Of a stretch of 64,000 nucleotides of DNA, positions 14,963-62,465 are shown piece after piece. Position 1 is the first letter of the stretch. Each line of letters starts with the position of its first letter. Position numbers and translations under genes: made by a program. The notes under the pieces are model-generated. The model searched no databases and was not told where the DNA came from. It saw nothing but the letters and a program-made list of their open reading frames with translations. The stretch is from an uncultured Dehalococcoidales bacterium. GTDB taxonomy: Bacteria; Chloroflexota; Dehalococcoidia; Dehalococcoidales; UBA5760. The DNA lies in assembly GCA_964472625.1 (NCBI GenBank), contig CAYYLM010000005.1, positions 15,576 through 79,575 of the forward strand, read 5' to 3'.

Positions 14963-15123
14963 CGTCCCACCCTCAGCTTAAAACGATAAACAGCACCTCA
15001 ATAATAGATTTTAAACTGACTTCGGTCAAGAGCAAACCACCAAGGCTCTTATAAAAACTCAGAGAAAAGCGAAAAAGACAAAGGAAATTAGTTAAATCTA
15101 GGGTGTCTTTGAGCCGCTGCGAT

Positions 15124-15714
15124 TCAGACTAACGCCTTACCCTTGCCAGCAGCACCCAATTTCTCCAGACCGTAGCGATAGCCCTGCTCAAATGCCTTCA
15201 TATTCAACTCTTCAGTCCCCTTGGGCACCGCAGCTAAAAGCGACTCCTTCATTGACTCCACGGTTACCAGACTGGTGACCGCGGTGAGAAATCCCAGCAT
15301 CACCACGTTGGCCACCGCCACCCTGCCCAGCCCCTCCGCGATGCGCCGGGCGGGTATACTCAGCAGCCGCTGGCTAGTTGGCAATGGCTTGACCAGGTCT
15401 TCATCAATAACTACCAGGGTATCATCACGGTTATGAGGGTGATACTTGTCATACCCCCGCTGCGACATGGCTACCAAAACTGAAGGCGCGGTAATGTAGG
15501 GATAGGTCACCAGCTTATCAGAAATAACCAAATCAGCCCGGCAGGCACCACCTCTAGCTTCCGGGCCATAATCCCGAGCAAAAGTTGCCTGCTTATGCTC
15601 AAAGATAGCTACCGCCTGACCGACAATATAGCCCGCCAGGATGATACCCTGCCCCCCATAACCACAGAGTCTCAGCTCCTCTCGCTCAGCCATACCTCTA
15701 CCCTCGATCAACAA
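15124..15714 (-). CDS. 2-oxoacid:ferredoxin oxidoreductase, gamma subunit
   Basis: 196 aa. The subunit order delta-alpha-beta-gamma fits 2-oxoglutarate-type enzymes, but substrate specificity is not provable from sequence. GYGGQGIILAG...YGPEARGG is the gamma-subunit motif. Confidence 0.8.
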   Translation of the reverse strand: MLIEGRGMAEREELRLCGYGGQGIILAGYIVGQAVAIFEHKQATFARDYGPEARGGACRADLVISDKLVTYPYITAPSVLVAMSQRGYDKYHPHNRDDTLVVIDEDLVKPLPTSQRLLSIPARRIAEGLGRVAVANVVMLGFLTAVTSLVTVESMKESLLAAVPKGTEELNMKAFEQGYRYGLEKLGAAGKGKALV

Positions 15715-16480
15715 ATTTCCCCACGATTATCTGCCCGTTAAACTCAATAGCCACCTGTTTAGGGTCAATTCCAGACTTAATAACACTGTTATCACGGTAA
15801 TACTTCATCTGGTCCAGCCCGGTTACCTGCTTATTCATCCGGCCGTAATAGGTTGGGCAGGGACTGATTATCTCCACTAGGCTGAAGCCCTTCTTGAGGA
15901 GCGCCTCAGTGACCGCCTTCTCCAGCCGACGAACATGTGCTGTCGTCCAGCGGGCGACATAGGCAGCACCGCTGGCGGCTGCCAAATACGGGACATTCAA
16001 CGGCTCGTCAACATTACCCCTCAACGAGGTGGTGGTTCGGGCCGTTAGCGGTGTCGTCGGACCCAGCTGCCCCCCGGTCATCCCATAGATAAAGTTATTG
16101 ACGCATAATACCGTCAGGTCGATACTGCGGCGGGCAGCGTGGATAAGGTGATTCCCCCCGATTGCCACTAGGTCGCCATCGCCACTTATTACCACGACCG
16201 TTAGCTCCGGATTAGCTACCTTAAGACCGGTGGCGAAGGGGATAGCCCGCCCGTGAGTGGTATGGAAAGAATCCAGATTGATGTAACCAGCCACCCTGCC
16301 GGTACAGCCTATCCCTGAGACGACGACTACCTTATCTAAATCAAGCCGGGACTTAACTAGCGTCCTGAGAAAGCAGTTAACCACCAAGCCCAAGCCGCAA
16401 CCAGGACACCAGATGTGCGGCACCCGTTCCACTCTCAGGTAATCATCTAGAGGATGCTTTTTTAAACCGACTTCACCCAC
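15698..16480 (-). CDS. 2-oxoacid:ferredoxin oxidoreductase, beta (TPP-binding) subunit
   Basis: 260 aa with WCPGCG, SGIGCTGR, GDGDLVAIGGNH (TPP motif) and NNFIYGMTGGQ. The start is a GTG immediately after a TAA that closes the upstream repeat-encoded frame. Confidence 0.9.
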   Translation of the reverse strand: MGEVGLKKHPLDDYLRVERVPHIWCPGCGLGLVVNCFLRTLVKSRLDLDKVVVVSGIGCTGRVAGYINLDSFHTTHGRAIPFATGLKVANPELTVVVISGDGDLVAIGGNHLIHAARRSIDLTVLCVNNFIYGMTGGQLGPTTPLTARTTTSLRGNVDEPLNVPYLAAASGAAYVARWTTAHVRRLEKAVTEALLKKGFSLVEIISPCPTYYGRMNKQVTGLDQMKYYRDNSVIKSGIDPKQVAIEFNGQIIVGKFVDRG

Positions 16481-16640
16481 TTAATAGCTACTTCCCCCGT
16501 TTGAACTGACTTCGCTCACTCGATAGCTACTTCCCCCGTTTGAACTGACTTCGCTCACTCGATAGCTACTTCCCCCGTTTGAACTGACTTCGCTCACTCG
16601 ATAGCTACTTCACCCTTTTTGAACTGACTTCGCCCATGTG
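16464..16640. repeat. Tandem array with 39-bp period (3 near-identical units + 1 diverged 40-bp unit + the native korB-like start region)
   Basis: Units start at 16484, 16523, 16562 and 16601 on the plus strand (ATAGCTACTTCCCCCGTTTGAACTGACTTCGCTCACTCG). Units 1-3 differ only in the last 2-3 nt. A fifth related copy (16464-16483 region) overlaps the first codons of the beta-subunit gene. Confidence 0.95.
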
Positions 16641-16670
16641 ACAACCTTTGCCATTTTAGATTGTCTTCCT

Positions 16671-17822
16671 CTATCTAACCGCCCGCCTTATTGCTGCCAA
16701 GATGGTCTCGGGAGCATGCACCCCTCCCCCCATATGAGGCACCAAAACTACCTCCGCCCGGCCACAAGCGCACCGCTCTACCTCCAGAGCAATCTGTCCG
16801 TAGTTAATCTCAGGCACGACAAACGCCTTAACCTCACGGGCAATATCCCTGATCCGGTCATCGGGGAAGGGCCAGACGGTGACCAGCCTCAGCATGCCAA
16901 CCCTGATTCCCTCACCCCTGGCCCGCTCGACAGCAATTTGGGAGACCCGGGCTGAAATTCCATAAGTACAGACAACTACCTCAGCACCCCGTATGCCGTC
17001 CTCTTCAAGCTCAATAATTTCGGCCTTATTCTGCTCAATCTTGTCGACCAGCCGCCTCACCAGCCTGTCCTGCGCCTCAGCGGTCATCGCCGGATAACCC
17101 CGCTCATCATGTGTTAGCCCGCTAACATGCAGATGGTAGCCCTCACCAGCGTTAGCCATCGGCGGCACTAAATCAGGGTCAGGCTCGAAGGGCAGATAGT
17201 CGCTGGTAGGCACGGTGGGCTTACGCCGAGGTACAAGTTCTATCTCACCAGGCGACGGGATGACCACCTTCTCATACATGTGCCCGGTAGCCGCTTCGGA
17301 CATAACCAGAACCGGCAGGCGATATTTTTCAGAAAGGTTAAAGGCCTTTATCGTCAGGTCATACAGCTCCTGGGGAGAGCTGGGTGATAGGGCAATGATA
17401 CTGTATACCCCGTGACTACCCCAGCGTGCCTGCATCATGTCCCCCTGACCAGTCAGGGTTGGTAGTCCAGTTGACGGTCCCGCCCGCTGGATGTTCACCA
17501 CGACACATGGGGTCTCGGTCATGATGCCCAAACCGATGTTTTCCATCATCAGGCTAAAGCCTGGCCCAGAGGTAGCCGTCATCGCCTTAACCCCACCCCA
17601 CGAAGCCCCCAGCACCGCCGCCATTGACCCCAGTTCGTCCTCCATCTGGATATAATTACCCCCAACTTCAGGGAGTCGCTCCGCCATCCGCTCCGCAATC
17701 TCGGTAGCCGGTGTGATGGGATAGCCGGCAAAGAAGCGACAACCAGCGCTTATCGCCCCCTCAGCACAGGCATCGTCTCCGCCCAGAAAAAACTCACCAG
17801 CCAGATATTTTCGCTCTGACAC
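16671..17822 (-). CDS. 2-oxoacid:ferredoxin oxidoreductase, alpha subunit
   Basis: 383 aa with FAGYPITPATEI, MEDELGSMAAVLGASWGGVKAMTATSGPGFSLM. Confidence 0.9.
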   Translation of the reverse strand: MSERKYLAGEFFLGGDDACAEGAISAGCRFFAGYPITPATEIAERMAERLPEVGGNYIQMEDELGSMAAVLGASWGGVKAMTATSGPGFSLMMENIGLGIMTETPCVVVNIQRAGPSTGLPTLTGQGDMMQARWGSHGVYSIIALSPSSPQELYDLTIKAFNLSEKYRLPVLVMSEAATGHMYEKVVIPSPGEIELVPRRKPTVPTSDYLPFEPDPDLVPPMANAGEGYHLHVSGLTHDERGYPAMTAEAQDRLVRRLVDKIEQNKAEIIELEEDGIRGAEVVVCTYGISARVSQIAVERARGEGIRVGMLRLVTVWPFPDDRIRDIAREVKAFVVPEINYGQIALEVERCACGRAEVVLVPHMGGGVHAPETILAAIRRAVR

Positions 17823-17831
17823 TTTAAACTC

Positions 17832-18071
17832 CTAGCCTTGGCAAGGACTCTTGGCAGTATCAACCACACCGATGGCAAAGTCAGGACAGACCATCCCGCA
17901 GATATCACACTTGGTACATTTTGAGTTATCACTGATATAGACCGGATGGTACCCCTGGCTATTAATCTCCGTCGATTCAAAGAGAATGTGCTTTGGGCAA
18001 AACTCAATACAGAAGCCACACCCCTTACACCGCTCCGGTATGATAATTACCTCTTTAGTCTCTGGCTTCAT
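17832..18071 (-). CDS. 2-oxoacid:ferredoxin oxidoreductase, delta (2x[4Fe-4S] ferredoxin) subunit
   Basis: Motifs are CKGCGFCIEFCP and CTKCDICGMVCP. The ORF is open to 18125, but the ATG at 18071 follows AAGGGGCAAAGGTGAT. Confidence 0.8.
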   Translation of the reverse strand: MKPETKEVIIIPERCKGCGFCIEFCPKHILFESTEINSQGYHPVYISDNSKCTKCDICGMVCPDFAIGVVDTAKSPCQG

Positions 18072-18241
18072 ATCACCTTTGCCCCTTACTTTCCACAGAA
18101 CATTCCGTGAGGATTTGACAACCACGGCACAATGATAAGAAATCTTAGCATACGCTTACCCCCATCGACAAATCCGGGCTTGGCTTGCTTCTCACCACCG
18201 ATGGAAAATATGCTACAATAGGCTTAATCCTGGAGTGGGAA

Positions 18242-19246
18242 ATGGAACCACAGAAGAGGTTGCGCCGGGGAATAATTATCCTAGCCAGCATCATCGCCGC
18301 TGGTACCATCGGCTATGTGCTCATCGAGGGATGGTCACCTAGCGACGCCATCTACATGACGGTGATAACCATCTCCACAGTAGGCTATGGTGAGGTGCAC
18401 CCGCTCAGTGACGCGGGGCGCATCTTCAGCATTGTCTTAATCATCGGCGGCGTTAGCGGGGCGCTATTTGTCTTCAGCGCCCTTGTCGAATATGCACTAG
18501 CCGGGAGATTCGGCGTAGCGAGGAGGAGGCGACAGATGAAAGCTAAAATAGCTAAACTAAAAGACCACTTTATTCTCTGTGGATACGGCCGGGTCGGGGA
18601 GGATATCGCCCGCACCTTTAGTGAGGAAGGGGTCCCCTTTGTGATTGTCGATAGCCGCCCGGATAACATCACTCTGGCTGAGGAGCAGGGCTACCTCAGC
18701 CTGCTTGGCGACGCCACCAGCGATAAGGTGCTCCTTGAGGCCGGTATTGAGCGAGCCCGGGCCTTGGTCGCCGCTATCGGCAGTGACGCAGACAACACCT
18801 ATATTGTCCTCTCGGCGCGGGGGCTGCGTCCCGACCTGTTTATCGAAGCCAGAGCCAGCGACAAAGAGGCCGAAGCCAAGCTAAAGAGGGCAGGTGCAAA
18901 CCGCATCGTCTCGCCAAACAGCATCGGTGCCCGGCGTATGGCCCTGCTCGCGATACGACCGACGGTGGCTGATTTTATCGACACGGTAACCTTTCGCCGT
19001 GGACGAGAGCTGCAGATGGAAAACATAATCGTCCCTGACAACTCACCGCTTATCGGACAAACGGTTGAGACAGTTCGCCAGCACAGCCAGGCTAACGTCC
19101 TAGCCATCAATAGAAAGAGTGGCAAGCTGCTAACTAACCCTGCCGGCGAAGAGCCTATCGAGCTTGGCGACCGACTTGTTATCATGGGCACCGCCGAGCA
19201 GCTGACCACCCTAGAATCCCTGTGTCAAGGAGAAAAATGCCGATGA
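18242..19246 (+). CDS. Potassium channel with RCK/TrkA-N and TrkA-C domains (MthK/Kch-like)
   Basis: It has two TM helices, the selectivity filter TISTVGYGEV, an RCK domain (ILCGYGRVGEDIA) and a C-terminal TrkA-C domain. The ATG at 18242 follows GGAGTGGGA. The upstream part of the ORF (18185-) contains a TGCTACAAT extended -10-like box. Confidence 0.85.
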   Translation: MEPQKRLRRGIIILASIIAAGTIGYVLIEGWSPSDAIYMTVITISTVGYGEVHPLSDAGRIFSIVLIIGGVSGALFVFSALVEYALAGRFGVARRRRQMKAKIAKLKDHFILCGYGRVGEDIARTFSEEGVPFVIVDSRPDNITLAEEQGYLSLLGDATSDKVLLEAGIERARALVAAIGSDADNTYIVLSARGLRPDLFIEARASDKEAEAKLKRAGANRIVSPNSIGARRMALLAIRPTVADFIDTVTFRRGRELQMENIIVPDNSPLIGQTVETVRQHSQANVLAINRKSGKLLTNPAGEEPIELGDRLVIMGTAEQLTTLESLCQGEKCR

Positions 19247-20283
19247 ATAAGCCCAAGGTAGGTATTATCAACGTTTCCGGTTACACCGGCGTCGAGCTAG
19301 CCCGGCTCCTTTCCCAGCACCCGGGGGTAGCGCTTACCTCGGTTACCGGGCGGAGTAGCGCCGGAAAGAAGTTGGGCGAGGTCTTCCCCCACCTAGCTGA
19401 CCTAGCGCTAACTATTGAGCCCGAGCTGAGTGAGGTTAGCCTCGCTTTCTCCGCCATGCCCCATAAAGAAAGCGCTAAAGAGGTAATACCACTGCTCAGC
19501 CGTGGTATTAAGGTGGTGGACCTGAGCGCCGATTTCCGCCTCAAGGACGCCACCGAGTACCCCGCTTGGTATGGATTTACCCACCCCGAGCCACAATTGC
19601 TCAGTCAAGCGGTATATGGACTACCTGAGCTATACCGCCGTGAGATAGCTGCTGCACAACTGGTGGCTAACCCCGGTTGCTATCCCACCGGGGCGATACT
19701 GGCTCTAGCTCCGGCCGTGAAAGCCGGAATAATTGAGCCGGAGATTATTATTGACAGTAAATCGGGGGCATCAGGTGCCGGTAGAACCCTGAGCCTACCG
19801 ACTCACTTTGCTGAAGCCAACGAAGATGCCAGCGCCTACGCTTTAGACGGGCACCGACATTTAGCTGAGATTACCCAGGAGCTCAGGCTACTTCGTCCCC
19901 AACTGCCAGCTGCGGTAACCTTTGTACCCCATCTCGTACCAATGACCCGGGGGATACTAACCACTGGCTACGCCCATCTAGCCTCGGGCAGGATAGCCAG
20001 TGGCAGGAGGGGAACCGGGGAGGTATTTCAGCTCTACCAAGACTTCTATCGGGATGAGCCCTTTGTCCGGGTGGTGGCGCACCCTCCCCACACCAAACAC
20101 ACCTGGGGCGCTAACACCTGCTTCATCCACCCCACCCTTGACCTGAGGACCGGCCGGCTCATCGTCATTAGCGCTATTGACAATCTGGTTAAGGGAGCAG
20201 CCGGTCAGGCAGTCCAGGACATGAACATCATGCTGGGGCTACCTGAGGCAACCGGACTCGGGGCAGCGGCTATTTACCCGTAA
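19243..20283 (+). CDS. argC: N-acetyl-gamma-glutamyl-phosphate reductase
   Basis: GIINVSGYTGVEL, SADFRL, ANPGCYPTG (active-site Cys) and AIDNLVKGAAGQAVQ are present. The ATG at 19243 overlaps the channel gene stop (ATGA), with AAGGAG 9 nt upstream. Confidence 0.92.
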   Translation: MNKPKVGIINVSGYTGVELARLLSQHPGVALTSVTGRSSAGKKLGEVFPHLADLALTIEPELSEVSLAFSAMPHKESAKEVIPLLSRGIKVVDLSADFRLKDATEYPAWYGFTHPEPQLLSQAVYGLPELYRREIAAAQLVANPGCYPTGAILALAPAVKAGIIEPEIIIDSKSGASGAGRTLSLPTHFAEANEDASAYALDGHRHLAEITQELRLLRPQLPAAVTFVPHLVPMTRGILTTGYAHLASGRIASGRRGTGEVFQLYQDFYRDEPFVRVVAHPPHTKHTWGANTCFIHPTLDLRTGRLIVISAIDNLVKGAAGQAVQDMNIMLGLPEATGLGAAAIYP

Positions 20284-20429
20284 GCGACTCTTACCTAGGA
20301 TCCAGTGGTAACCCTGACCATTTTGTGATAAAATAATAGAGAGCCATCTGGCAATGGCCCTCTCATGATAGTCAAGTTAAAAGAAACCCAGAACTCACTT
20401 AAATTATAACATAGTGAGGAGGGTTTGTC

Positions 20430-21508: not shown

Positions 21509-21565
21509 ACTCTTTCCTTGTATTTTCCTCCCCTTTGTATATGAAGTAGACAACCCCCCATTTCC

Positions 21566-26176: not shown

Positions 26177-26473
26177 CGATAACCACCTAGATTTATTGTT
26201 ATCATTTTACCCTAAATTATGTATTAATGTTAGTTGATAGTATTCATAATAGTTATAGAAGTGGTTAAATAGGCAGTAGCTATTAAAAATCGGTAACAAT
26301 TGGGTACATATTCAGAAAAATGTAAGCTAAGGTTTTCCGGACTTTTCAATTTTTTCTCAGGGTTATTGAAAAAACGGAGCCAGTTTTGCAAAAATCGTAC
26401 TGCCGAGAACAGATTGGGTTCGCCACTAAAGAGGGTGCTTTGTGATTGGTAAGGAGCTCTAGCTTCTACTAAC
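26177..26473. other. AT-rich non-coding spacer obg|dnaA: candidate oriC segment / DNA-unwinding region plus obg promoter
   Basis: By eye this is the most AT-rich stretch of the window (for example TTATTGTTATCATTTTACCCTAAATTATGTATTAATGTTAGTTGATAGTATTCATAATAGTTATAG). It has no ORF and lies next to dnaA. Confidence 0.4.
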
Positions 26474-27814: not shown

Positions 27815-28025
27815 CACATTACCTTTGTTCTTCCCCGCGAGATCCAAGCTTCTATATTCCTCGGTTAGTGGTCAAGGTTTGACTTTAATTACCAGTTACC
27901 TAGTAGCCGCCAAAGAGTGGAAGCTAGAATGGGAACGTTATAATGATAGCAAGCTTCTTTGATGGGGAGGCAACAGTTTCAGCACTGGTTTTGGGATATT
28001 CTCGGGTGCTATTTTCCGTTAAGAG

Positions 28026-28071
28026 GTCTTGAAAACTGGCTTATTTGCCCGATATTAAGCTTTTAGGTTTG
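28026..28071 (+). repeat. 46-bp direct repeat, copy A (promoter-like TTGAAA-N18-TATTAA inside)
   Basis: GTCTTGAAAACTGGCTTATTTGCCCGATATTAAGCTTTTAGGTTTG matches copy B at 41 of 46 positions with a 228-bp offset. Confidence 0.9.
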
Positions 28072-28253
28072 GATTAGCCATTTGGTGGGGAGGTTATCTG
28101 CCCTTGGTATTTAGCTATGGGAGGCTTAATGAGTGCTTTAGGCGACGGATAGCCTTGAAGTTGCCTGGCTAAATACGGGGCGATTTTTGTAAGGTGGCAA
28201 GGTTCTTCAAAGCGGTTTTGGGGCATTTACGGACCCCCTTTTAAGCTTAAAAT

Positions 28254-28299
28254 GTCCTGAAAACTGGCTTATTCGCCCAATATCAAGCTTTTAGCTTTG
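28254..28299 (+). repeat. 46-bp direct repeat, copy B (CTGAAA-N18-TATCAA inside)
   Basis: GTCCTGAAAACTGGCTTATTCGCCCAATATCAAGCTTTTAGCTTTG. It lies about 65 nt upstream of the fmt start. Confidence 0.9.
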
Positions 28300-29344: not shown

Positions 29345-29377
29345 CATGTTTAGCATAAGGATTGGAGGGAAGCCAGT

Positions 29378-36163: not shown

Positions 36164-36853
36164 ATGAAGCTAGTTTTTATCCCTGGAGCCGCTTGTGGTA
36201 AGAGGGCGTGGCTGTGTCAGGCCCTATATTTTGCTGATTCGGAAGTGATTGCCCTGCCTGGTCATCCTGAAGGTAAGCCCTGCTCCAGCGTTGATGGTTA
36301 CGTGGCGTGGCTGCGGGGCTACCTTGAGGAGCAGTCGCATCAGGATGTCGTTCTAGCCGGTCATTCTATGGGGGGTGCTGTGGTTCAGCAGTACGGGCTG
36401 AAGCATGGCGATGGGATAAAGGCTTTGGTTTTAATTGGCACCGGAGCTAGACTCAGGATTCACCCTGACCTGCTTGAGGCAATTAGGGGTATGATCGATA
36501 GTAAGCGGGCATGGCGGGAGTATTTGGAAGAGCGTCATCGTAACGCAGTGCCTGAAGTTAGGCGGACCATAATTGAAGAGCGGCTGCGCATTGGGCCGGC
36601 GGTGATGCTGAACGACCTGCTCGCCTGTGATAAGTTTGACATGCTGGCGGAGGTCCATAATATCAAGCTGCCGACGCTGGTTATCGGTGGCAGTGAAGAC
36701 GACCTGACACCCGTAAAATATGCGCACTATCTAACGAGCCAGATTAAGGGAGCCCGTGAGGTTATCGTTCCCGGGGCAGCTCACTGGGTGCTCACCGAGA
36801 AACCGAAAGAGGTTAATCAGGCGATAGAGCGCTTTCTTGCCGAGCTTGCCTGA
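36164..36853 (+). CDS. Alpha/beta-fold hydrolase
   Basis: 229 aa with the nucleophile elbow GHSMGG and a C-terminal His (GAAHW) typical of the fold. Confidence 0.7.
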   Translation: MKLVFIPGAACGKRAWLCQALYFADSEVIALPGHPEGKPCSSVDGYVAWLRGYLEEQSHQDVVLAGHSMGGAVVQQYGLKHGDGIKALVLIGTGARLRIHPDLLEAIRGMIDSKRAWREYLEERHRNAVPEVRRTIIEERLRIGPAVMLNDLLACDKFDMLAEVHNIKLPTLVIGGSEDDLTPVKYAHYLTSQIKGAREVIVPGAAHWVLTEKPKEVNQAIERFLAELA

Positions 36854-38681
36854 GTGCAGCGTGTTTCTGCCGGCAGGCTGGATGACGGCGCTGGAGACCA
36901 CAGGCACTGCAGTCCCGATAACGGCAATCTGGGGTTTCCTGGTTTTTGAGGGCGTTTTTAAATTCTCGCTTGAGGAAGGCTTGGGTTACTCCAATATCTA
37001 TGTGAGCCCAGGGTAACGGCTCGTCCAGGGATAGTTCCCGCTGGGCATAGAAACTAGGTTCAAGTCCGGTCTCCTGGAAGGCACGGAGCCAGTTTTCGTA
37101 ATTAAAGTGCTCGCTCCAGCCGTCGAAGGTGTTACCCAGTTGCCAGGCGTGATGGATAACCCTGCCTAACCGGCGGTCGCCTCGTGACATAGCGGCTTCA
37201 AGCTGGCTTACCTTTGGGTCGTTCCAGGATAGCCTGACCTCCTTACGGCGCAGCCTCTGTTTCAGAAGCTCAATCTTGGCGTTTAGCTGCTCTTCGCTTT
37301 CCTGAGTCACCCACTGAAAGGGGGTGTGCGGTTTGGGCACGAAGGTGGACAGGCTGACCCTTATCTGGGGTCTCCGGCCCCTGGTTCTTTTCCCTAGGGA
37401 GCTGATTTTGTCTATCAGGTCGGCTATTGCCTCAATATCGTCCCTAGTCTCGTTAGGCAGGCCAAGCATAAAGTAGAGCTTGAGAGCGTTCCAGCCACGG
37501 CTGAAGGCTTCGGCAGCGGTTCCCAGGATGGTATCCTCGGAGGTGTTCTTGTTGATTGCTTGCCTGAGTCGCTGGCTACCGGCCTCAGGGGCAAAGGTGA
37601 GCCCGGTTCTTTTGTGGGTGGCTAGAGAGTCGAGTAATCTAAGCGATAGGTTATCAATCCGCAGACTGGGCAGTGACAGGATGAGATTCTGGTCTTGATA
37701 GCGTTGGAACAGGCTGGCTACCAGCTCGTCAAGGTGGGGGTAGTCGCTGGTGCTTAAGGAAACCAGGGAGAATTCGTTATAGCCACAGTTAGCAATAAGC
37801 TCACCGACTGCCCTGAGCACCTCCTCTGGGGAGCGTTCCCGCACCGGACGGTATATGTTTCCCGCCTGGCAGAAGCGGCAGCCGCGGCTACAGCCCCGCT
37901 GAATCTCAACGGCTCCCCGGTCGTGGGTAATCTCGATATAGGGGACAACCGGTCTGGTGGGTGGTGGTGGTAACTCGTTTACTAGCTGCCTTTCAATACG
38001 GGGTCTAGCCTCGGTTACAGTGGGGGTGATGCTTTGGAAAAGACCGCTGGCCTCGTAGGCTACCTGGTAGAGACTGGGTACGTAGATACCGGCTACCTGC
38101 GCCAGCCGGCGCAAGCGCTCTTCTCTAGGGGCCATCTCCTTTTTCCAGTCCCGGAGGGAGCTAAGTAGCTCAAGGACAGCCTCTTCGCCGTCCCCGATTA
38201 CGAAGCCGTCAATGAAGTCTGCCATCGGCTCGGGGTTTAGGGCGCAGCTACCACCGGCGATGACCAGGGGGTGGGAGACACTTCTTTCTGAGGCGAGCAG
38301 TGGAATCCGGGCGAGGTCGAGCATATTGAGCACGTTGGTATAGGTGAGTTCGTAGCCCAGGGAAAAGCCGATGATGTCGAAATCCTGCAAGGGGTGCTTG
38401 GATTCCAAGCTGAAGAGCGGAATACCGCTACTGCGGAGTTGGGCAGCCATATCGGGCCAGGGAGCAAAGGCCCTTTCCGCTAGTACATCCGGCTGGCTAT
38501 TGAGTAGCTCGTAGAGGATGTGTATCGCCAGGGTGGACATCCCGAGCTCGTACAGGTCCGGGTAGGAGAGGACAATCCGGAGCGGGGTCTTGTCCCAGTC
38601 TTTGGTGACGCTGTTCCACTCGCCGCCGGTATAGCGGGCGGGCTTAATCACTTGGCTCAAAACATTATCGAGCTCGGTCAA
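36813..38681 (-). CDS. B12-binding-domain radical SAM protein
   Basis: 622 aa. It has an N-terminal B12-binding-like domain (FDIIGFSLGYELTY) and a radical SAM site (EIQRGCSRGCRFCQAG). The TTG start follows AGGAG. The 3' end overlaps the convergent hydrolase gene by 41 nt. Confidence 0.85.
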   Translation of the reverse strand: MTELDNVLSQVIKPARYTGGEWNSVTKDWDKTPLRIVLSYPDLYELGMSTLAIHILYELLNSQPDVLAERAFAPWPDMAAQLRSSGIPLFSLESKHPLQDFDIIGFSLGYELTYTNVLNMLDLARIPLLASERSVSHPLVIAGGSCALNPEPMADFIDGFVIGDGEEAVLELLSSLRDWKKEMAPREERLRRLAQVAGIYVPSLYQVAYEASGLFQSITPTVTEARPRIERQLVNELPPPPTRPVVPYIEITHDRGAVEIQRGCSRGCRFCQAGNIYRPVRERSPEEVLRAVGELIANCGYNEFSLVSLSTSDYPHLDELVASLFQRYQDQNLILSLPSLRIDNLSLRLLDSLATHKRTGLTFAPEAGSQRLRQAINKNTSEDTILGTAAEAFSRGWNALKLYFMLGLPNETRDDIEAIADLIDKISSLGKRTRGRRPQIRVSLSTFVPKPHTPFQWVTQESEEQLNAKIELLKQRLRRKEVRLSWNDPKVSQLEAAMSRGDRRLGRVIHHAWQLGNTFDGWSEHFNYENWLRAFQETGLEPSFYAQRELSLDEPLPWAHIDIGVTQAFLKREFKNALKNQETPDCRYRDCSACGLQRRHPACRQKHAALRQARQESALSPD

Positions 38682-38710
38682 TTAAAAACTCCTAACCCAA
38701 AGTTGCCTTT

Positions 38711-38810
38711 GTAGTCAGTTCCAAAAACTTGCCGAAGTATGCTGCCTCATGAAGTCAGCCCAAAGACTTATTGAAGTATGCTACCTCATGAAGTCAGTTT
38801 AAAAACTCTG
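38711..38810 (+). repeat. Second 39/40-bp-period tandem repeat (2 full + 1 partial unit), related to the 16.5-kb array but in opposite orientation relative to flanking genes
   Basis: Units begin at 38711 (GTAGTCAGTTCCAAAAACTTGCCGAAGTATGCTGCCTCAT), 38751 (GAAGTCAGCCCAAAGACTTATTGAAGTATGCTACCTCAT) and 38790 (GAAGTCAGTTTAAAAACTCTG...). Confidence 0.85.
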
Positions 38811-38874
38811 ATGGCTAATTATAGTTTAAGATGGGGAAGTAATCCAGCCTCGCGCTCAGTATCGGTTAGTTCCC

Positions 38875-45544: not shown

Positions 45545-46060
45545 ATGTATAAGGAAAAGGGACTAAGATTAGATAGACTCATTTTATGGTTAATTCCTTT
45601 ACTGACGCTAGCCTTATTGACACCCCTAGTATTGAAAACGGAGCCAGCGGAAGCTGGCTGAGGTGGTATATCTTGGCTAGCCGTGGACGTTAGCCCTGGC
45701 ATTGGAGGTCATGTTATCTTTCATGGGGTCAAAGAATTGACGTCCTATCCCTCATATGAACCCCTTTGGCCTGGCGAGGAAGTAACAATTGAGGCAGTGC
45801 CAACTCTGGGCTATCGTTTCAATTACTGGAGCAGAGAGATTCGTAGCATTAATCAAAGAGAAATTTACAGCACCAACCGAATAGCAAAAGTGAAAGCGGG
45901 GAGCGACAATTGGATTACCGCTAATTTCTCACCGATACTGCCTGGTTGGCTAATTGCTGTTATCGTAGTTTCAATAACTGTTCCCTTGTTACTCAGGTGG
46001 CGAATAAGGCGTTCGAAATTCCTCACAGAGACAAGCCCTTATGACAACAGTGCCTCATAA
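45545..46060 (+). pseudogene. Secreted/anchored InlB-B-repeat-like protein interrupted by one in-frame TGA (45659-45661)
   Basis: The ATG at 45545 encodes a signal-peptide-like MYKEKGLRLDRLILWLIPLLTLALLTPLVLKTEPAEAG, followed by TGA. The same frame continues GGISWLAVDVSPGIGGHVIF...EEVTIEAVPTLGYRFNYWS and a C-terminal TM helix with RWRIRRSK. The tracked ORF 45683-46060 is only the distal part. Confidence 0.5.
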
Positions 46061-46976: not shown

Positions 46977-48209
46977 TACTGAGCTGGCAATAAGAGAGGC
47001 AAAAGAGGTTGAGAGCATCGCAGTGTAGCCCAGCCCGAATTGGCGGGCGTTAAAGAAGTCAATCATTGGCCCTTTGAGGCGGGCGAGGGCTGAGCCGCCG
47101 GCTGAAGCCAGATTGGTGAGGCCGATATACTTCCCGGCCTCACCCTTGGGAACCACGTCTACGGCCAGCGCCCAGTTGGTGCTCATCAGGCCGCCGAAGC
47201 CAATCCCCATCAGGATGGCACTGGTCAGGATGAACTGGTCGCTACGGAAGAAGAAGAGGAGTCCGATTCCCAGAGCGCCGATGAGTCCGGAAATAAGGCC
47301 AATGGATCTGCGCCCGAACCTGTCAGACAGGTGCCCGGCCGGGTAGACCATGCCGAGCATGCACAGGGAAGACACCAGGGTGAAGCTGCCCATGACGGCA
47401 GCCGGATTGGCGACCCCGAGATAGTCCCGGAAGAAGTAAAGCCCGAATGCCTGGAAGGCAGTCAGGGGAACGACGAAGAAGAGGCGGCACAGTACAAAGC
47501 GGATGAAATCAGGGTTTGCCTGAATGTCAATCCGGAAAGTTTTACGCAGGATCGATACCAGAGGTAGCTTGGGCCCACCGGCTCCAGGTGGCTCCTTAAC
47601 CAGAAACACGGTGGCGAGCATGGTGCCCAGAAAGACGGCACCCAGTATCCCTAGGCTCAGCCAGAGCCACCGGCTTCCCTCACCAAGAGAATAGTTCCCC
47701 ATTAGCTGACCTACTGCCCAGATGGCGATGCCCGCCCCCGCTATCTCGAGCAGTCCCTTCACCCCGGAGGCTAGTCCCCTTTTTCCCTCTGGTACTAGAT
47801 CGGGGAAAAGGGTGAGATAGGGCCCCAGCGCGGTATTGGCGCTAATCTGCAGCAGGTAGTAGATGGCAAAGAGGACGGCTAGGCTACCGGCTAGGCTGAT
47901 GCCGGGCAGAAACGCTAGCGTCAGTATCGCCCCGATGAGGATATAGGGTCGCCTTCGTCCCCATCTTGAGCCAGAGCGGTCGCTCATGGCGCCGGCTATG
48001 GGCTGGGTAACTATCGCCAGGATGAGGCCGGTAACGGTAAGCAGCCCGAGGTAGGTAGCCTGTCGGCCCGCCGGAACGAAGTCAGCGATGCGCAGGGGCA
48101 GAATGATGCTGTGCAGGCTGCTCCATAGCGCCGTCATCGCCAGGCCAAAGATGGTAATCTTGGCATAATCGAGGGGGCGAAACTCTCCCTTCTTGACGCT
48201 GGCATCCAT
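46950..48209 (-). CDS. MFS transporter
   Basis: 419 aa with about 12 predicted TM helices. MFS loop motifs are GAMSDRSGSRWGRRRP and LSDRFGRR. Confidence 0.8.
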   Translation of the reverse strand: MDASVKKGEFRPLDYAKITIFGLAMTALWSSLHSIILPLRIADFVPAGRQATYLGLLTVTGLILAIVTQPIAGAMSDRSGSRWGRRRPYILIGAILTLAFLPGISLAGSLAVLFAIYYLLQISANTALGPYLTLFPDLVPEGKRGLASGVKGLLEIAGAGIAIWAVGQLMGNYSLGEGSRWLWLSLGILGAVFLGTMLATVFLVKEPPGAGGPKLPLVSILRKTFRIDIQANPDFIRFVLCRLFFVVPLTAFQAFGLYFFRDYLGVANPAAVMGSFTLVSSLCMLGMVYPAGHLSDRFGRRSIGLISGLIGALGIGLLFFFRSDQFILTSAILMGIGFGGLMSTNWALAVDVVPKGEAGKYIGLTNLASAGGSALARLKGPMIDFFNARQFGLGYTAMLSTSFASLIASSVLLWRIKKR

Positions 48210-56603: not shown

Positions 56604-56637
56604 CTAATCACCTGTTCTCCCTAGTTTATTCCCTCAT

Positions 56638-56667: not shown

Positions 56668-56699
56668 GTAACCCTGTCTTGGTTACTTATGCGTCTTGA

Positions 56700-57614: not shown

Positions 57615-57638
57615 TATTTATAAACCAGTAAGTAGCTG

Positions 57639-58487
57639 TCACGGCCTTTGCTGACGCTCCCGGTAGGCTCCGATGTAACGCCGGGCATAGGCGTCTTGGT
57701 TAAGGAGAAGGTCAGCGGCTAAAACCGCCGGGCGCACTTTGGCTACGTCCACAATGAGGCAGGTTACGCCGGTGGCAATAGCCATGGCCACCAAGTTGCT
57801 ATTGAGCAGATTGCGGTCAGGTAAGCCGAAGGAGATGTTACTTACGCCCAGTGTCAGGTTTACGCCCAGTTCAGCCTTAATACGCCCTATTGTTTCCAGG
57901 GTGACCAAGCCCGACCCGGGGTCGGCTGCCACCGCCAGAGCCAGGCAATCAATGATAATGTCCTCGGGGGGGATGCCCACCGCCCCGGCACGCTCGATAA
58001 TCTTGCGGGCGATGGCAAGTCGTCGCTCAGCGTCTTTGGGGACGCCCTGTTCGTCCTGCGCGAGACCGATAACCGCCGCCCCGTATTCCTTGACCAGGGG
58101 CAAAACCTTCTTTAGGGAGTGCTCTTCACCGGTTACCGAGTTAATGAGCGGCTTACCCTGGTAGACCTTAAGGGCTGCTTCCAGGGCCTCAGGATTGGGG
58201 CTATCAAGGCATAGTGGTACCTCGACTGTTTCCATTACCAGTTGCACTGCTTGGGGGAGCCGGCTTACCTCGTCAATCCCGACACTAGCGACATTAATAT
58301 CGATGATGTCCGCCCCGGCTTGAACCTGAGATAGGGCCTCCTCACGGACAATCTCCAGATCGCCGGCCCTGAGGGCTTCAGACATCCTTTTCTTACCCGT
58401 AGGGTTAATCCGTTCCCCAATAAGTACGGTGGGGTGGCCGTGACCAATGATTACCTCCCTGGTGGCACTTGAAACCCTAGTTTCCAT
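57639..58487 (-). CDS. Methyltetrahydrofolate:corrinoid methyltransferase (pterin-binding, AcsE/MeTr-like)
   Basis: 282 aa with IGERINPTGKK, ADIIDINV, LCLDSPNPEALEAAL, PLINSVTGE and GVSNISFGLP. Confidence 0.85.
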   Translation of the reverse strand: METRVSSATREVIIGHGHPTVLIGERINPTGKKRMSEALRAGDLEIVREEALSQVQAGADIIDINVASVGIDEVSRLPQAVQLVMETVEVPLCLDSPNPEALEAALKVYQGKPLINSVTGEEHSLKKVLPLVKEYGAAVIGLAQDEQGVPKDAERRLAIARKIIERAGAVGIPPEDIIIDCLALAVAADPGSGLVTLETIGRIKAELGVNLTLGVSNISFGLPDRNLLNSNLVAMAIATGVTCLIVDVAKVRPAVLAADLLLNQDAYARRYIGAYRERQQRP

Positions 58488-60337
58488 TAGCCAATCCCCT
58501 TTCTCTTCCCGTGTGCCAGTCGGTATTCCCCTAAGGAGCTTGCCTGGATGAAGGTGTGCCTGAAATCAGGGGCGCTGGCTAGTTCAATATAGTTGACTCT
58601 AGCAGCCACAGCTTGAGCACTAGCTCGCTGCTGGTGGGAAATAAGAGCCAGCTTGGCACCCATACCGGCCGCATTGCCTACCTGCCGGAAGTGGCCCAGA
58701 GGCAGCGAGGGCAGCAGACCAATAGTTATGGCGCTGGCCACATCGATGTAACTACCGAAGGCACCGGCGATTATTACCCGGGTGATTTCCGCTTCGGTGC
58801 GCTGGTTAGCCTCTAACAGTACCTGAATGCCGGTGCGGATGGCGGCCTTAGCCAGCTGTAACTGGCGCACGTCCTGCTGGGTGATGACGATAGCTGGCTT
58901 GCCTCCCCTTTCCTTCTCACTGACCAGGACGAACTCGCGTTGCTTCTGGCGGTGGCGCAGGCGGGGGTGGTTATCCATCATGTGGCCGTCTTCAGCGATG
59001 ATGCCAGCCAGGTGAAGTTGGGCAATAGCGTCCAGAATACCTGAGCCGCAGAGACCCACCGGTGGTGCCCCCTCAATGGTCTGATACTGGATGTCGTCAC
59101 CAGCAATGCGTAGCCGCTCGATAGCCCCGCGGGCCGCCCGCATTCCGTCCTTGATGTGACCACCCTCGAAGGCAGGGCCGGAGGCACAGGAAACGCTGCT
59201 TATCTGGCCGCCATCGATTAGGGAGACCTCGGTATTGGTTCCGATGTCTATGGCGAGTAGTATGCCCTCAGCCTGCCAAGCTGCGGTGGCCAGCAGCATA
59301 GCCACGTGGTCAGCGCCAACAAATCCGGCGATGTTGGGTAGTAGGTGAGCGTAGGCGCCGGGAGCCATCTTGAGTCCCAGGTCACGGGCCTTTAAGTCTA
59401 TTGCCTGGCTAGCGGCGGGCACGAAGGGAGAGCGGGCAAGTTGGGTTAGCGGCAGACCCAGTAATAGGTGGTGCATGGCGGTGTTACCGACGATTACGAC
59501 GTCCGTGATTTCAGCCACTCTAGCCTCAACTTGGGCGCATAGCTTGCTGGCTAGCTGGTTAATAGCCTTAGCGGCTAGCCTTTGCAGTCGCCTCCCTTCA
59601 GTCGCTGAGCTTAAAGCGTGGGTAATACGGCTGACGACGTCCTCGCCGTAGCCTATCTGGGGGTTCATCATGCCTTGAGCCGCCAGAATCCGACCCTGGC
59701 TCAGGTCAACTAGGTAGCCGGCAATCTTGGTGGTGCCCAGATCTATCGCTAGCCCTAGCTTATGGCTTGGCCAGGGGCCAATGGCTACTACCTCGTCGTC
59801 GCGAACCGTAACCTGACACTGCCACTCCCAAGAACGGAGCTGTGTCGAAAGCTGCCGCCGGACATCGATGTCAATAGTGCGGCAGGCTAGCTGGTGCTGC
59901 TGGTTCAGCGTCGCTAGCAGGCGCTCGCCATCTCCTCGCAGGTCTGATAGCGACGGGGCGGTTAGTTTCACTCGATAGGCGGTGACTACCGGCTCCGGTG
60001 GGACTGCTATCTCCAGTCCTTCTACCTGGGTGCGTTGGGGGGTGGTCATCGACTCGGTAGGCACACTCACCCTGACATTACTGGTGGGGTAGGTTTGACA
60101 GGCGAGGCGCCAGCCAGCCGCCAGTTCTTGAGGTGAAAAGACCTCCCGCTCAATAGCGGTGGCTTCTGAAACCGTACCGTCTAGGACTTTTACCCTGCAG
60201 GCATGGCAGGTCCCTCTACCGGCGCATAGGCTTACGATGTCGGCACCTACTTGGCGAGCACAGGTTAGCAGAGACTTGCCCACCCGGCACTCCCCTCGGC
60301 GACCGATCGGCACAAAATCAACGTTATAAGCTGTCAT
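58487..60337 (-). CDS. ASKHA-domain corrinoid reductive activase (RACo-like) with N-terminal plant-type [2Fe-2S] ferredoxin
   Basis: 616 aa with CAGRGTCHACRVKV and LACQT. The large C-terminal ASKHA/DUF4445-type region has LAIDLGTTKIAG, AIDIGTNTE and GPAFEGG. Its stop overlaps the downstream ATG (TAATG). Confidence 0.8.
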   Translation of the reverse strand: MTAYNVDFVPIGRRGECRVGKSLLTCARQVGADIVSLCAGRGTCHACRVKVLDGTVSEATAIEREVFSPQELAAGWRLACQTYPTSNVRVSVPTESMTTPQRTQVEGLEIAVPPEPVVTAYRVKLTAPSLSDLRGDGERLLATLNQQHQLACRTIDIDVRRQLSTQLRSWEWQCQVTVRDDEVVAIGPWPSHKLGLAIDLGTTKIAGYLVDLSQGRILAAQGMMNPQIGYGEDVVSRITHALSSATEGRRLQRLAAKAINQLASKLCAQVEARVAEITDVVIVGNTAMHHLLLGLPLTQLARSPFVPAASQAIDLKARDLGLKMAPGAYAHLLPNIAGFVGADHVAMLLATAAWQAEGILLAIDIGTNTEVSLIDGGQISSVSCASGPAFEGGHIKDGMRAARGAIERLRIAGDDIQYQTIEGAPPVGLCGSGILDAIAQLHLAGIIAEDGHMMDNHPRLRHRQKQREFVLVSEKERGGKPAIVITQQDVRQLQLAKAAIRTGIQVLLEANQRTEAEITRVIIAGAFGSYIDVASAITIGLLPSLPLGHFRQVGNAAGMGAKLALISHQQRASAQAVAARVNYIELASAPDFRHTFIQASSLGEYRLAHGKRKGIG

Positions 60338-60385
60338 CTGCCTCGTCTGACATTACAACACTATTTGCCCTTAGCGGCGTCTCTT

Positions 60386-61282
60386 TTATCCTGGTTGCCT
60401 GACCTCGACACCAGCGAGGCGCTCCAGAGCCTTAACCAGGACCTGAGTGCCGCTTCCGCCCTCACTGGAGTCTTGAAGCGAATAATAAAGCTGGTTTACG
60501 AAGCTCGTTACCGGCAGGGGTAGCTTCATCTCGGCGGCGGCTTCCATAACCAGTCTCAGGTCTTTCTGCACCAGGTCGACCATGAATCCAGGGCTGAAAT
60601 CCCTTTTGATAATGCGTGGGCCCAGATTAGCCAGCTGCCATGAGTCGGCGGCGCCACCCTTGACGGCGTCAATGGCTTTCTCTAGGTCGGCTCCTGACTT
60701 CTGGGCGAATACTAGTGCCTCAACCACTGCATTGAGAGTGCCCACCACCAGGATCTGGTTCATCAGTTTTACTGTCTGCCCCATGCCGTTACCACCGACG
60801 TGGACGATGTTCTTCCCCAGCACCCCAAAGATAGGTCGGCAGCGCTGAAATACTTCGCCGTCACCACCGACCATGATGGCTAAGGTCGCCTTGACGGCAC
60901 CGACGTCTCCCCCACTCACCGGGGCGTCCAGCATGCTGACCCCCTTTTCCTTAAGACGGGCGGCAATCTCCCGGGTTGCCTTGGGGGAGATGGTACTCAT
61001 GTCAATGACCACCGAGCCGGGTCTAGCGCCCTCGATAACGCCATCCTTACCCAGAATCACCGCTGCTACATCTTTCGTATCGGAGACTATGGTAATGACT
61101 ACCGGGCACTCCATAGCCAGTTCTTTCGGTGAGCTTGCCTTCCGAGCCCCTTCTTTGGCTATGGCTTCTGCCTTGGACGCCGTGCGGTTATAGGCGACGA
61201 CCTCAAAGCCGGCCTTGAGCAGGTTACGGGCCATGGGCATCCCCATGATGCCGAGGCCAATGAAGCCAACCTTTTCGGACAC
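60386..61282 (-). CDS. NAD(P)-dependent beta-hydroxyacid dehydrogenase (3-hydroxyisobutyrate / 2-hydroxy-3-oxopropionate reductase family)
   Basis: 298 aa with the Rossmann motif GFIGLGIMGMPMARNL, DAPVSGG and GNGMGQTVKLMNQ. Confidence 0.85.
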   Translation of the reverse strand: MSEKVGFIGLGIMGMPMARNLLKAGFEVVAYNRTASKAEAIAKEGARKASSPKELAMECPVVITIVSDTKDVAAVILGKDGVIEGARPGSVVIDMSTISPKATREIAARLKEKGVSMLDAPVSGGDVGAVKATLAIMVGGDGEVFQRCRPIFGVLGKNIVHVGGNGMGQTVKLMNQILVVGTLNAVVEALVFAQKSGADLEKAIDAVKGGAADSWQLANLGPRIIKRDFSPGFMVDLVQKDLRLVMEAAAEMKLPLPVTSFVNQLYYSLQDSSEGGSGTQVLVKALERLAGVEVRQPG

Positions 61283-61380
61283 AACTAAAACTCCTTCCCC
61301 CTTTTACTAGAGACAGGGCTTAAACGGCTGAGGGATACTCTAGCCATGACTCGAATATTTATTCCTTCGGATTTATCCCT

Positions 61381-62232
61381 TTATTTATATTCGTAGAATC
61401 CCTGACCTGTCTTGCGTCCCAGCTTACCGGTGGTAACCAGCTTCTTGAGCAGAACTGGGGGAATAAACCGTGAATCCTTGAGTTCTTGGTACATGGCATT
61501 GGTTATTAGAAGCAGGACATCAAGCCCGATAAAATCAGATAGTGCCAGTGGTCCTATCGGGTTATTTAATCCCAGCTTTACAGCGGTGTCAATGTCCTCT
61601 CTGGTGGCGATACCGGCTTCCAGCATGCGGATAGCGTCGAGCAGGTAAGGCACCAGCAGGCGGTTGCCAATGAAACCCGGAAGGTCTTGGACGATGATGA
61701 CCGTCTTTCCTAGGGATTCTGCGAAGCGTCGGCTAGTTTCCAGAGTTTCCGGACTGATGACGATGGTCTTGACAATTTCGAGTAGTTTCATCATTGGTGC
61801 CGGGTTCCAGAAGTGAAGCCCCACCACCTTGTCTGGTCGGCGGGAGGCTATGGCCATGTCAGTCACTGATAGGCAGGAGGTATTGGTTGCCAGGAGAGCA
61901 TGCTTGGGACATACCTTGTCCATCTCGGCAAATATCTGCTTCTTTAACTCTAGGTTCTCGTTAGCGGCTTCTATGACTAGGTCGCGGTCACCAAGGTCCT
62001 TGGTATTGGTCGTGCCCTTGATGCGGCTAAGGATAGCCTCCATCTCCTGCTGGGAAAACGCGCCCTTGGCTACCCTTCTGGTTAGTACCGAGTTAATTAG
62101 TGACAGCCCTTTATTTAAAAGCTCATCATTTATTTCCGCGACCATCACCTGGTAGCCCGATTGGGCGCACACCTGAGTAATGCCGCTACCCATGGTGCCA
62201 CAACCAATTACGCCTACCTTCTTGATCTCCAT
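61381..62232 (-). CDS. hbd: 3-hydroxyacyl-CoA (3-hydroxybutyryl-CoA) dehydrogenase
   Basis: 283 aa with VGVIGCGTMGSGI, TNTSCLSVT, HFWNPAPMMKLLEIV and PGFIGNRLL. Confidence 0.88.
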   Translation of the reverse strand: MEIKKVGVIGCGTMGSGITQVCAQSGYQVMVAEINDELLNKGLSLINSVLTRRVAKGAFSQQEMEAILSRIKGTTNTKDLGDRDLVIEAANENLELKKQIFAEMDKVCPKHALLATNTSCLSVTDMAIASRRPDKVVGLHFWNPAPMMKLLEIVKTIVISPETLETSRRFAESLGKTVIIVQDLPGFIGNRLLVPYLLDAIRMLEAGIATREDIDTAVKLGLNNPIGPLALSDFIGLDVLLLITNAMYQELKDSRFIPPVLLKKLVTTGKLGRKTGQGFYEYK

Positions 62233-62401
62233 AGTCTTCTCCTCTTAGTCTCACATTTTTGGTGTCACGAGCATTGATGTAACCTAGTAATAGCGCTGAA
62301 GGTAGCCGATTGTTTTCTTTAAGCCTCGCCAGCGTCTTTCTTGGTTTTTCTATTATAGCGGTTTTAATTTTGGGATTACAAAACAGAGTGAGCGTGGGGA
62401 C

Positions 62402-62422
62402 GGGGTAGCTAGCAAGCTCCCC
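62402..62422 (-). terminator. GC-rich hairpin about 45 nt downstream of the rpoD stop (weak terminator candidate)
   Basis: On the minus strand GGGGGAGCT-TGCT-AGCT(A)CCCC forms 8 bp with one bulge. No U-tract follows immediately (TGTTTTGT lies about 18 nt further on), so confidence is low. It is adjacent to a GAAGTCAG motif copy. Confidence 0.3.
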
Positions 62423-62465
62423 CATAGGGTCTGACTTCCGCATCCATACTACGAGCGGAGAGTTA

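Follow-up and report, generated by a model that had tools for sequence, protein, structure and literature searches.

A candidate copy-number-variable minisatellite in translation-initiation regions of an uncultured Dehalococcoidales bacterium

What unites the T-rich boxes that recur in the non-coding DNA of a 64,000-nucleotide stretch from an uncultured Dehalococcoidales bacterium (GenBank assembly GCA_964472625.1, contig CAYYLM010000005.1, forward-strand positions 15,576 to 79,575; hereafter the window), and what do they do there? A preliminary description, made from the sequence alone, gathered them into one dispersed intergenic family on both sides of dnaA and proposed -35 elements of an extracytoplasmic-function (ECF) or other alternative sigma factor, an operator of a global regulator, or a repeat resembling repetitive extragenic palindromes (REPs) or miniature inverted-repeat transposable elements (MITEs). 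The conserved core is a 16-nt box, TTTTTAAACTGACTTC, present at three loci of the window: a tandem array between korA and korB, a second array in the leader of a radical S-adenosylmethionine (radical-SAM) gene, and a solo copy upstream of a trmO-like gene. The reading favoured here, with about even confidence, is that the arrays represent a lineage-specific minisatellite of 37–41 nt lodged in translation-initiation regions, with a copy number that shifts between relatives and possibly tunes translation. Homologue names point to an organism of the Dehalococcoidales/Chloroflexota. Copy and locus counts refer to the 64 kb window and the fetched syntenic loci; relatives on the korB/trmO side were obtained through KorA homologues, and orthologous radical-SAM regions were fetched separately.

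The 10-mer AACTGACTTC occurs exactly at 15014, 16504, 16543, 16582 and 16622 on the plus strand and at 38790 on the minus strand, and with one mismatch at 16465, 38711 and 29369; in the last of these G replaces A, and the copy is placed between the Shine-Dalgarno (SD) sequence and the TTG start of mazG. The 8-mer CTGACTTC is found additionally at 38751 (minus) and 62431 (plus). With up to one mismatch allowed, nine 10-mer matches are observed against 2.8 expected, a count reached in 0 of 100 shuffles. Seven of the nine are units of the two tandem arrays, the eighth is the solo copy at 15014 and the ninth is the copy at 29369; since seven fall inside two arrays, there are only three independent loci. 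All three lie within the non-coding ~8% of the window, so that the concentration in non-coding DNA noticed earlier is real, for a sample of three. The positions given in the preliminary description hold, but they mix three unrelated things. Its one coding-region copy, placed at about 48058–48065, actually lies at 48078–48085, and a second coding copy exists at 60694. The three 8-mer copies apart from the arrays and the solo box (48078, 60694 and 62431) fit the chance expectation of about two.

Both arrays are built as (A-B)n-A, where A is the T-rich box (T)TTTRAACTGACTTC of 14–16 nt and B is an inter-box segment of 21–25 nt; the whole repeat unit measures 37–41 nt. These long-period repeats are the sole ones in ~200 kb of window and relatives. 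Read on the sense strand, the box is GAAGTCAGTT in the korB and trmO cases and AACTGACTTC in that of the radical-SAM gene.

Array 1 (16461..16633, minus strand) is a 39-nt tandem array with five box copies, for which Tandem Repeats Finder (TRF) gives a period of 39, 4.4 copies and a 93% match. It is set between korA (alpha subunit, 16671..17822, minus; Pfam POR_N and PFOR_II), the operon gene upstream, and korB (2-oxoacid:ferredoxin oxidoreductase beta subunit, 15698..16480, minus; Pfam TPP_enzyme_C). The KorA homologues, from Dehalococcoidales/Chloroflexota, are named 2-oxoglutarate/2-oxoacid:ferredoxin oxidoreductase alpha. The array unit reads TTTGAACTGACTTCGCTCACTCGATAGCTACTTCCCCCG on the plus strand and GAAGTCAGTTCAAACGGGG GAAGTAGCTATCGAGTGAGC on the sense (minus) strand, and the inter-box segments are identical to each other. 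The true korB start is the GTG at 16480, which is backed by the N-terminal alignment M(G/S)(E/Q)V(S/G)L(K/E)KHPLDDY with four relatives and is provided by the last array unit.

The single-copy state of this site is preserved in L122 (KorA 92% identical), where the korA–korB gap is 33 nt and korB starts ATG AGC GAA GTC AGT TTA AAA AAG CAT; the box is therefore korB's own codons 3–8, read on the other strand. In the window, codons 3–8 coincide with the last, degenerate box copy, GAAGTCGGTTTAAAAAAG. The L123 gene encodes an N-terminus as in L122 (MSQVSLEK) with synonymous-type changes and without the box, and the array is absent from korB in both of these closest syntenic relatives. Three boxes are present in L126 and four in L135, at the same site and with a spacing of 39 nt (19 + 20 substructure), and their inter-box parts are unlike those of the window. 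Box number at korB thus runs 1, 1 (diverged), 3, 4 and 5 across relatives and window. The 5' flank of array 1 retains the ancestral AAAGG-N7-ATG GGC GAAGTCAGTT, and this flank, GTCACATGGGCGAAGTCAGTT, matches the single-copy korB start GTCACATGAGCGAAGTCAGTT of L122. The ancestral SD sequence and ATG have been displaced 156 nt upstream by the array.

The displaced start now opens a first upstream open reading frame (uORF1, 16605..16637, minus), a relic of the ancestral korB start with ATG at 16637 after AAAGG-N7, ten codons (MGEVSSKRVK*) and a stop at 16605. Seven nucleotides past that stop, the GTG at 16597 begins uORF2 (16481..16597, minus), whose 38 codons run through three in-frame units, (VSEVSSNGGSSYR)x3, and whose TAA (16483–16481) immediately adjoins the korB GTG. 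Ribosomes probably reach korB through this relay: the ancestral SD-ATG would start uORF1, the GTG just beyond its stop would start uORF2, and the juxtaposition of the uORF2 TAA with the korB GTG would permit termination–reinitiation. The plus frames of array 1 are all closed, and the single open minus frame is ended by the TAA ahead of korB. The array was also considered as a coding repeat and rejected, the plus frames being closed and the open minus frame stopped before korB. As further observations at this site, the Logan short-read contigs L001/L002 of the same organism begin within the last array-1 unit, at 33 nt before the korB start; the automatic gene call next to the L126 array gives a korB of 267 aa with a different start.

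Array 2 (38711..38807, minus strand) occupies the 5' leader of a TIGR03960-type B12-binding radical-SAM gene (36813..38681, minus; Pfam Radical_SAM_N2 and Radical_SAM, named after its homologues), and its other neighbour is a metallo-beta-lactamase-fold gene. It comprises 2.4 units of 39–40 nt (TRF 38713–38807, period 39, 78% match) that read TTTTTAAACTGACTTCATGAGGTAGCATACTTCAATAAGTC, TTTGGGCTGACTTCATGAGGCAGCATACTTCGGCAAGTT and TTTGGAACTGACTAC... on the sense strand, where every frame is closed by stops. The TTG start at 38681 is supported by an N-terminal alignment (MTELD...), and the SD sequence AGGAG at 38693–38689 is contributed by the last array unit. The array lies in the transcribed leader, downstream of a promoter TGGATT-17-TATAAT (38818..38846, minus) that a consensus scan missed because its -35 matches at 3/6 positions only; this promoter, TGGATTAC...AACTATAAT, is kept down to relatives with 71% protein identity.

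The ancestral layout is again found among relatives. In L167, L170 and L171 (82–71% radical-SAM protein identity) there are 0 units and no box upstream of the gene, and a leader of ~20 nt follows the conserved promoter as TAGCCAyyGGAG, ~8 nt and TTG. In closer relatives the units are inserted between the ancestral SD sequence and the start codon, extending the leader from ~20 nt to 60–170 nt: one unit in L129 and L130, two in L131, three in L128 and four in L133, with periods of 37–41 nt, so that the series including the window is 0, 1, 1, 2, 2.4, 3 and 4. The relatives' units follow the pattern TTTT(T)AAACTGACTTC ... AGGyArCAT ... cAGGAG. In L128, L130, L131 and L133 each unit ends in AGGAG, and the next one opens with a U-rich spacer and CTG, resembling the gene's actual initiation region, AGGAG TTTTTAA TTG ACC. 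Within the window, the internal units have lost AGGAG, and only the last one retains it. Beside the L128 array, the automatic gene call yields a radical-SAM protein of 612 aa with a different start.

The third copy is a solo box (15008–15023) downstream of korG and upstream of a TrmO_N + HhH-GPD fusion gene (13853..14962, minus; Pfam). It is simply the 17-nt spacer, GAAGTCAGTTTAAAATC, of a sigma-70-type promoter, TTGACC-17-TATTAT (15001..15029, minus; 10/12 in a promoter scan). In a four-genome alignment both hexamers and ~15 nt downstream are invariant, and the spacer carries two core substitutions in L126. Judged from this alignment, the conservation pattern is that of a promoter and not of a separately constrained operator.

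The three loci are tied together by the box itself. The korB boxes of L122 and L135, the radical-SAM leaders of the window, L130, L131 and L133, and the trmO region of L122 all share an identical TTTTTAAACTGACTTC; the window's trmO copy is one base off. On sequence grounds this 16-mer identity across three loci is far beyond chance. Outside the box the korB and radical-SAM arrays are weakly alike, through TAGC(A)TACTTC in the window (P ~0.007 by shuffling) and through GACTTC..CAGGCAG between L135 and L133 (P ~0.002 by shuffling). A strict two-box scan of JGI metagenomes returned the korB and radical-SAM loci of this clade only, plus one unrelated 21-nt satellite.

Both arrays are insertions or amplifications within translation-initiation regions. 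Their anatomy, ancestral states, ORF geometry and copy-number polymorphism are shown by the sequences; we infer slippage, translational coupling, any effect on expression and the manner in which units spread between loci. Most likely, the arrays grow and shrink by replication slippage or unequal recombination between boxes. In the radical-SAM leader each relative's unit imitates an initiation region, with its SD-like AGGAG, U-rich spacer and CUG. The arrays would be tolerated because working initiation signals are regenerated beside the gene body, and their copy number may tune translation. Several observations weigh against this account. Relative to the gene, the orientation of the box at korB is opposite to that in the radical-SAM leader, so that the units cannot all be simple copies of a sense-strand initiation region. 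The TAA|GTG abutment occurs in the window only; in L135 the nearest preceding in-frame stop is 33 nt away from the korB GTG, which has GAAGG 4 nt ahead of it, so that coupling is not a conserved design. No source of the korB inter-box sequence CGGGGGAAGTAGCTATCGA was found elsewhere in the window or the fetched loci. Moreover, the recurrence of one exact 16-mer at three loci of several genomes points to some constraint outside the model.

In a rival reading, the box would be the operator of a lineage-specific DNA-binding regulator that co-controls the kor operon, the radical-SAM gene and the trmO-like gene, with tandem copies raising occupancy. This is unlikely. The recurrence of the same 16-mer at three 5' regions in several genomes speaks for it, as do the position of one copy within a conserved promoter, separating its -35 from its -10 (trmO), and that of another just 3' of a conserved promoter (radical-SAM); independent loci are all non-coding or at a gene start, and occurrence in both orientations is compatible with DNA binding. 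Against it stand a copy number that ranges from 0 to 5 among close relatives and the lack of a box in L123 at korB and in L167, L170 and L171 ahead of the radical-SAM gene. The L126 promoter copy has accepted its two core changes while the hexamers stayed invariant, the box is neither a palindrome nor a regular direct repeat, the korB copy is accounted for by coding constraint, and no candidate regulator was found beside the loci.

Another unlikely alternative dispenses with a role in expression: the arrays would be selectively neutral by-products of slippage, and the shared box would stem from ectopic gene conversion or from chance convergence of AT-rich initiation regions. The unstable copy number fits, as does the decay of units within arrays (array 2 is only 78% matched); other short tandem duplications of 5' regions occur in the lineage, and the unit of L129, TTTTAAACTGACCGTC, has a sequence intermediate between the box and the initiation region of the gene itself, TTTTGAATTGACCGAG. 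Neutrality is harder to reconcile with an exact 16-mer at three loci, for which the author's estimate of chance is ~3e-5 per 64 kb, with the regeneration of a working initiation signal beside the gene every time, and with the 39-nt in-frame period that all korB arrays hold.

The duplications just mentioned are documented in L126 (GCA_004196295), at 3570–3665 and 12690–12850, and neither is present in the window. The initiation region of nadD is duplicated there, with GAAGTCAGTAT twice, 22 nt apart, the second copy continuing into the ATG and GAAGTCAGT standing directly ahead of it; ~85 nt of the trmO promoter region are duplicated as well. Judged from these two cases, 5' regions are readily duplicated as short tandems in this lineage.

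More speculative, and clearly improbable on present evidence, is a mobile or conversion-spread Dehalococcoidia minisatellite that colonises initiation regions either way round, brings or regenerates its own SD sequence and start, and whose length would serve as a heritable, rapidly mutable translation dial for genes of central metabolism, korB among them. As a further possibility, the complementary boxes of the kor mRNA and the radical-SAM leader may pair in trans. In that very unlikely case GAAGUCAGUUUAAAA at the korB start of the kor mRNA would bind its complement in the radical-SAM leader, or in a small RNA derived from it, and regulate korB translation. The boxes on the transcribed strands of the two loci are indeed exact reverse complements, and the korB copy lies inside the region covered by the ribosome at initiation. 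This complementarity follows automatically from the inverted box orientation, however. The idea gained no support in an independent genome, L123/L129, whose korB box has diverged: among ~36 start regions compared for duplex formation with the leader, korB came 23rd. The promoter-spacer copy is also left unaccounted for.

It is highly improbable that the boxes are ECF or alternative-sigma -35 elements or that the arrays form a structured cis-regulatory RNA: GAAC/AAAC does lie within the box and shuffled sequences fold less well than the array-1 transcript (z = -3.6), but spacing and -10 are wrong, array 1 points antisense into korA, orientation is inconsistent and the solo copy is a spacer, while the array-1 z-score is inflated by pairing among repeat units, array 2 folds no better than shuffles (z = -1.3) and Rfam yields no match, in the kor region up to E 10.

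The individual promoter candidates can be specified further. The -35 to -10 spacer of a typical ECF promoter is 16–17 nt. An ECF promoter on the plus strand of array 1 would have 14 nt between GAAC and CGAT and would face the korA 3' end in antisense; the units of array 2 hold no CGT-type -10; the solo box is the spacer of TTGACC-17-TATTAT and not a -35; and the orientation of the box to the downstream gene is opposite at the two arrays. Conservation across orthologues is likewise not seen, with 0 units in L167, L170 and L171 and no korB array in L122 and L123. A promoter array TTGAAC-17-TAGCTA on the plus strand of array 1 was also rejected: it faces no gene, and its spacing is lost in array 2. 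The sigma-factor option of the preliminary description is not supported, given the spacing, the -10, the orientation and the spacer role of the solo copy, and a sigma-factor regulon around dnaA is no longer tenable. At the gathering threshold, Rfam 15 found two tRNAs only in the window, and nothing relevant in 14900–16800 (the kor region) at E up to 10.

The sequences that placed the family on both sides of dnaA are unrelated. Those at 28031 and 28259 are part of a distinct 53-nt repeat pair (28019–28071 and 28247–28299; 87% identical, 228 nt apart) in the dnaA–fmt intergenic region, on the fmt strand, whose only sequence in common with the box is AAACTGGCTT; both L122/L128 and L123/L129 retain the pair as such. 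At 26378, the 10-mer shows 4/15 mismatches to the core of that pair. The 53-nt pair has a promoter-like TTGAAA-N18-TATTAA, and its two copies are altered together in L123, which suggests concerted evolution; it may be related to oriC or to the fmt promoter. The similarity reported earlier between 26365–26383 and 45631–45647 is real, yet it is a third, two-copy match, TTGAAAA(AA)CGGAGCCAG (26366–26383 and 45632–45647), which has no relation to the box family. L122 retains the 26366 copy apart from two changes; after the 45632 copy come a hairpin, GCCAGCggaaGCTGGC, and then a small gene encoding a Flg_new_2 domain. Finally, the 62431 copy is an 8-mer in the rpoD–hbd intergenic region. There (62395–62440) a hairpin, GGGGTAGCTAGCAAGCTCCCC, stands beside CTGACTTC and resembles, together with it, the array-1 B-A junction (TAGCTA...CCCCC...CTGACTTC); it is probably a terminator with a chance 8-mer match.

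GC skew changes sign at 26–28 kb beside dnaA, with its cumulative minimum at ~27–28 kb, and the window therefore contains the replication origin. Neither of the intergenic regions beside dnaA yielded a canonical DnaA box (TTATCCACA, up to one mismatch); positions 26190–26300 form an AT-rich stretch. All three loci carry the 16-nt box on the leading strand, with the two arrays placed roughly symmetrically about the origin. A replication-oriented polar motif was considered and set aside as not significant (P ~0.25; three loci, two of them 1.5 kb apart).

If the arrays do tune translation, they would constitute an expression dial set by copy number, similar to that of mycobacterial interspersed repetitive units (MIRUs), in an uncultivated Dehalococcoidia lineage, and it would act on 2-oxoacid:ferredoxin oxidoreductase, an enzyme central to anaerobic carbon metabolism. 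In practical terms, the arrays break short-read assemblies at the gene start and misplace start-codon calls, as in the 612-aa and 267-aa calls of relatives, and they could act as strain-typing markers for these populations.

Among known repeat systems, two are readily set apart. A CRISPR array, in which identical repeats alternate with unique spacers of similar length and cas genes usually lie close by, was rejected, as the inter-box segments of array 1 are identical and no Cas domain occurs among the neighbouring ORFs scanned. A MITE, with terminal inverted repeats around 100–400 bp and a target-site duplication, was rejected as well, as no inverted-repeat pair flanks either array and the flanks join seamlessly to the L122 single-copy state. 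REPs are GC-rich imperfect palindromes of 20–40 nt with a GTAG-type head, hundreds of copies and a cognate RAYT transposase. Like REPs and the mosaic elements that they build (BIMEs), the boxes form a small intergenic repeat family that can cluster and sometimes sits inside operons; unlike them, the box is AT-rich and non-palindromic and occupies three loci in 64 kb. Inverted repeats are absent from array-1 units and have 5-bp arms only in array 2. The REP/MITE-like option of the preliminary description thus keeps its small lineage-specific repeat family, but the anatomy is that of a minisatellite, with neither the REP palindrome nor MITE terminal inverted repeats. In the plasmid and phage collections no similarity was found, and a full-text literature search for the 10-mer returned primers only.

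The neisserial intergenic mosaic elements (NIME; dRS3 + RS units) and the pneumococcal BOX element (boxA-(boxB)n-boxC) are closer in architecture, sharing the (A-B)n-A plan, a variable unit number and inter-box segments that differ by locus or lineage. Phage integrases use dRS3, an inverted repeat of 20 bp, and BOX modules are 45–59 nt long and form extended hairpins. Neither system is situated within initiation regions or contains a gene's first codons, unlike the arrays described here.

A further resemblance emerged among GTDB species representatives, where two AACTGACTTC words 24–34 nt apart occur at at least 119 loci, about half of those listed forming a coherent Paenibacillus family; among the matches listed, the non-Paenibacillus loci are unrelated background tandem repeats, some of them coding. 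In viral contigs, three control 10-mers matched in composition were found at 5, 13 and 10 loci, the real word at 3. As control words are as frequent as AACTGACTTC, the word is without general significance and gives no evidence of relatedness to Paenibacillus. The ~40-nt leader repeats of Paenibacillus resemble the present arrays in carrying an 11-mer, CGAAGTCAGTT, with a period of ~39–42 nt and units ending at the downstream SD sequence, a likeness in 10-mer and period that the search pattern itself imposes. Unlike the window box, they are uniformly oriented, contain a covarying hairpin AGUUUU(GC)/(GC)AAAACU and number dozens of loci per genome.

These Paenibacillus/Paenibacillaceae repeats were found at at least 44 loci in ~25 genomes (L003–L121; for example L047:3537-3740, L079:6659-6870 and L010:1828-1910), as 2–5 tandem units of ~36–44 nt in one orientation. 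The last unit adjoins the SD sequence as (A)TGCTTACGAAGTCAGTTTT(GC)-loop-(GC)AAAACT-N2-4-AGGAGG-N5-9-ATG, and one hairpin pair covaries as CG 11, GC 10 and UA 4. The genes that follow are diverse (ABC permeases, a phosphotransferase system, MetRS, BirA, DapA, HU, RuvB, Ndk and CopZ). Rfam searches of eight loci gave no match, and a literature search on these repeats found nothing relevant. The repeat looks like an undescribed leader or intercistronic RNA element.

The MIRUs offer the nearest parallel. Tandem intercistronic units at multiple loci, with differences in copy number, are among the MIRU traits that Supply et al. are said to have described. The arrays of the window are likewise short tandem units, intercistronic or 5' of co-oriented genes and placed at start codons; they occupy more than one locus, and their copy number varies between close relatives. 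The location agrees in detail, array 1 lying between the korA stop and the korB start and array 2 between the ancestral SD sequence and the radical-SAM start. At korB, additionally, a short reading frame spans the units and terminates where the downstream gene begins. MIRUs are reviewed as apparently mobile elements that insert at start codons and whose unit ORF is coupled to the gene (PMC12548453). A unit ORF ahead of the gene is found here as uORF2 with its TAA|GTG in the window, but not in L135 or in array 2, where stops occur in all frames, and the stop–start abutment is confined to one genome. The units here measure 37–41 nt as against 40–100 nt, the box occurs in both orientations where MIRUs are co-oriented with the flanking genes, 2–4 loci are known, and the different phylum leaves no sequence relation to be expected. 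The feature would thus be a start-codon-associated intergenic minisatellite, a type already known elsewhere, to which MIRU-type intercistronic minisatellites appear to be the closest analogues, a comparison that carries no claim of membership.

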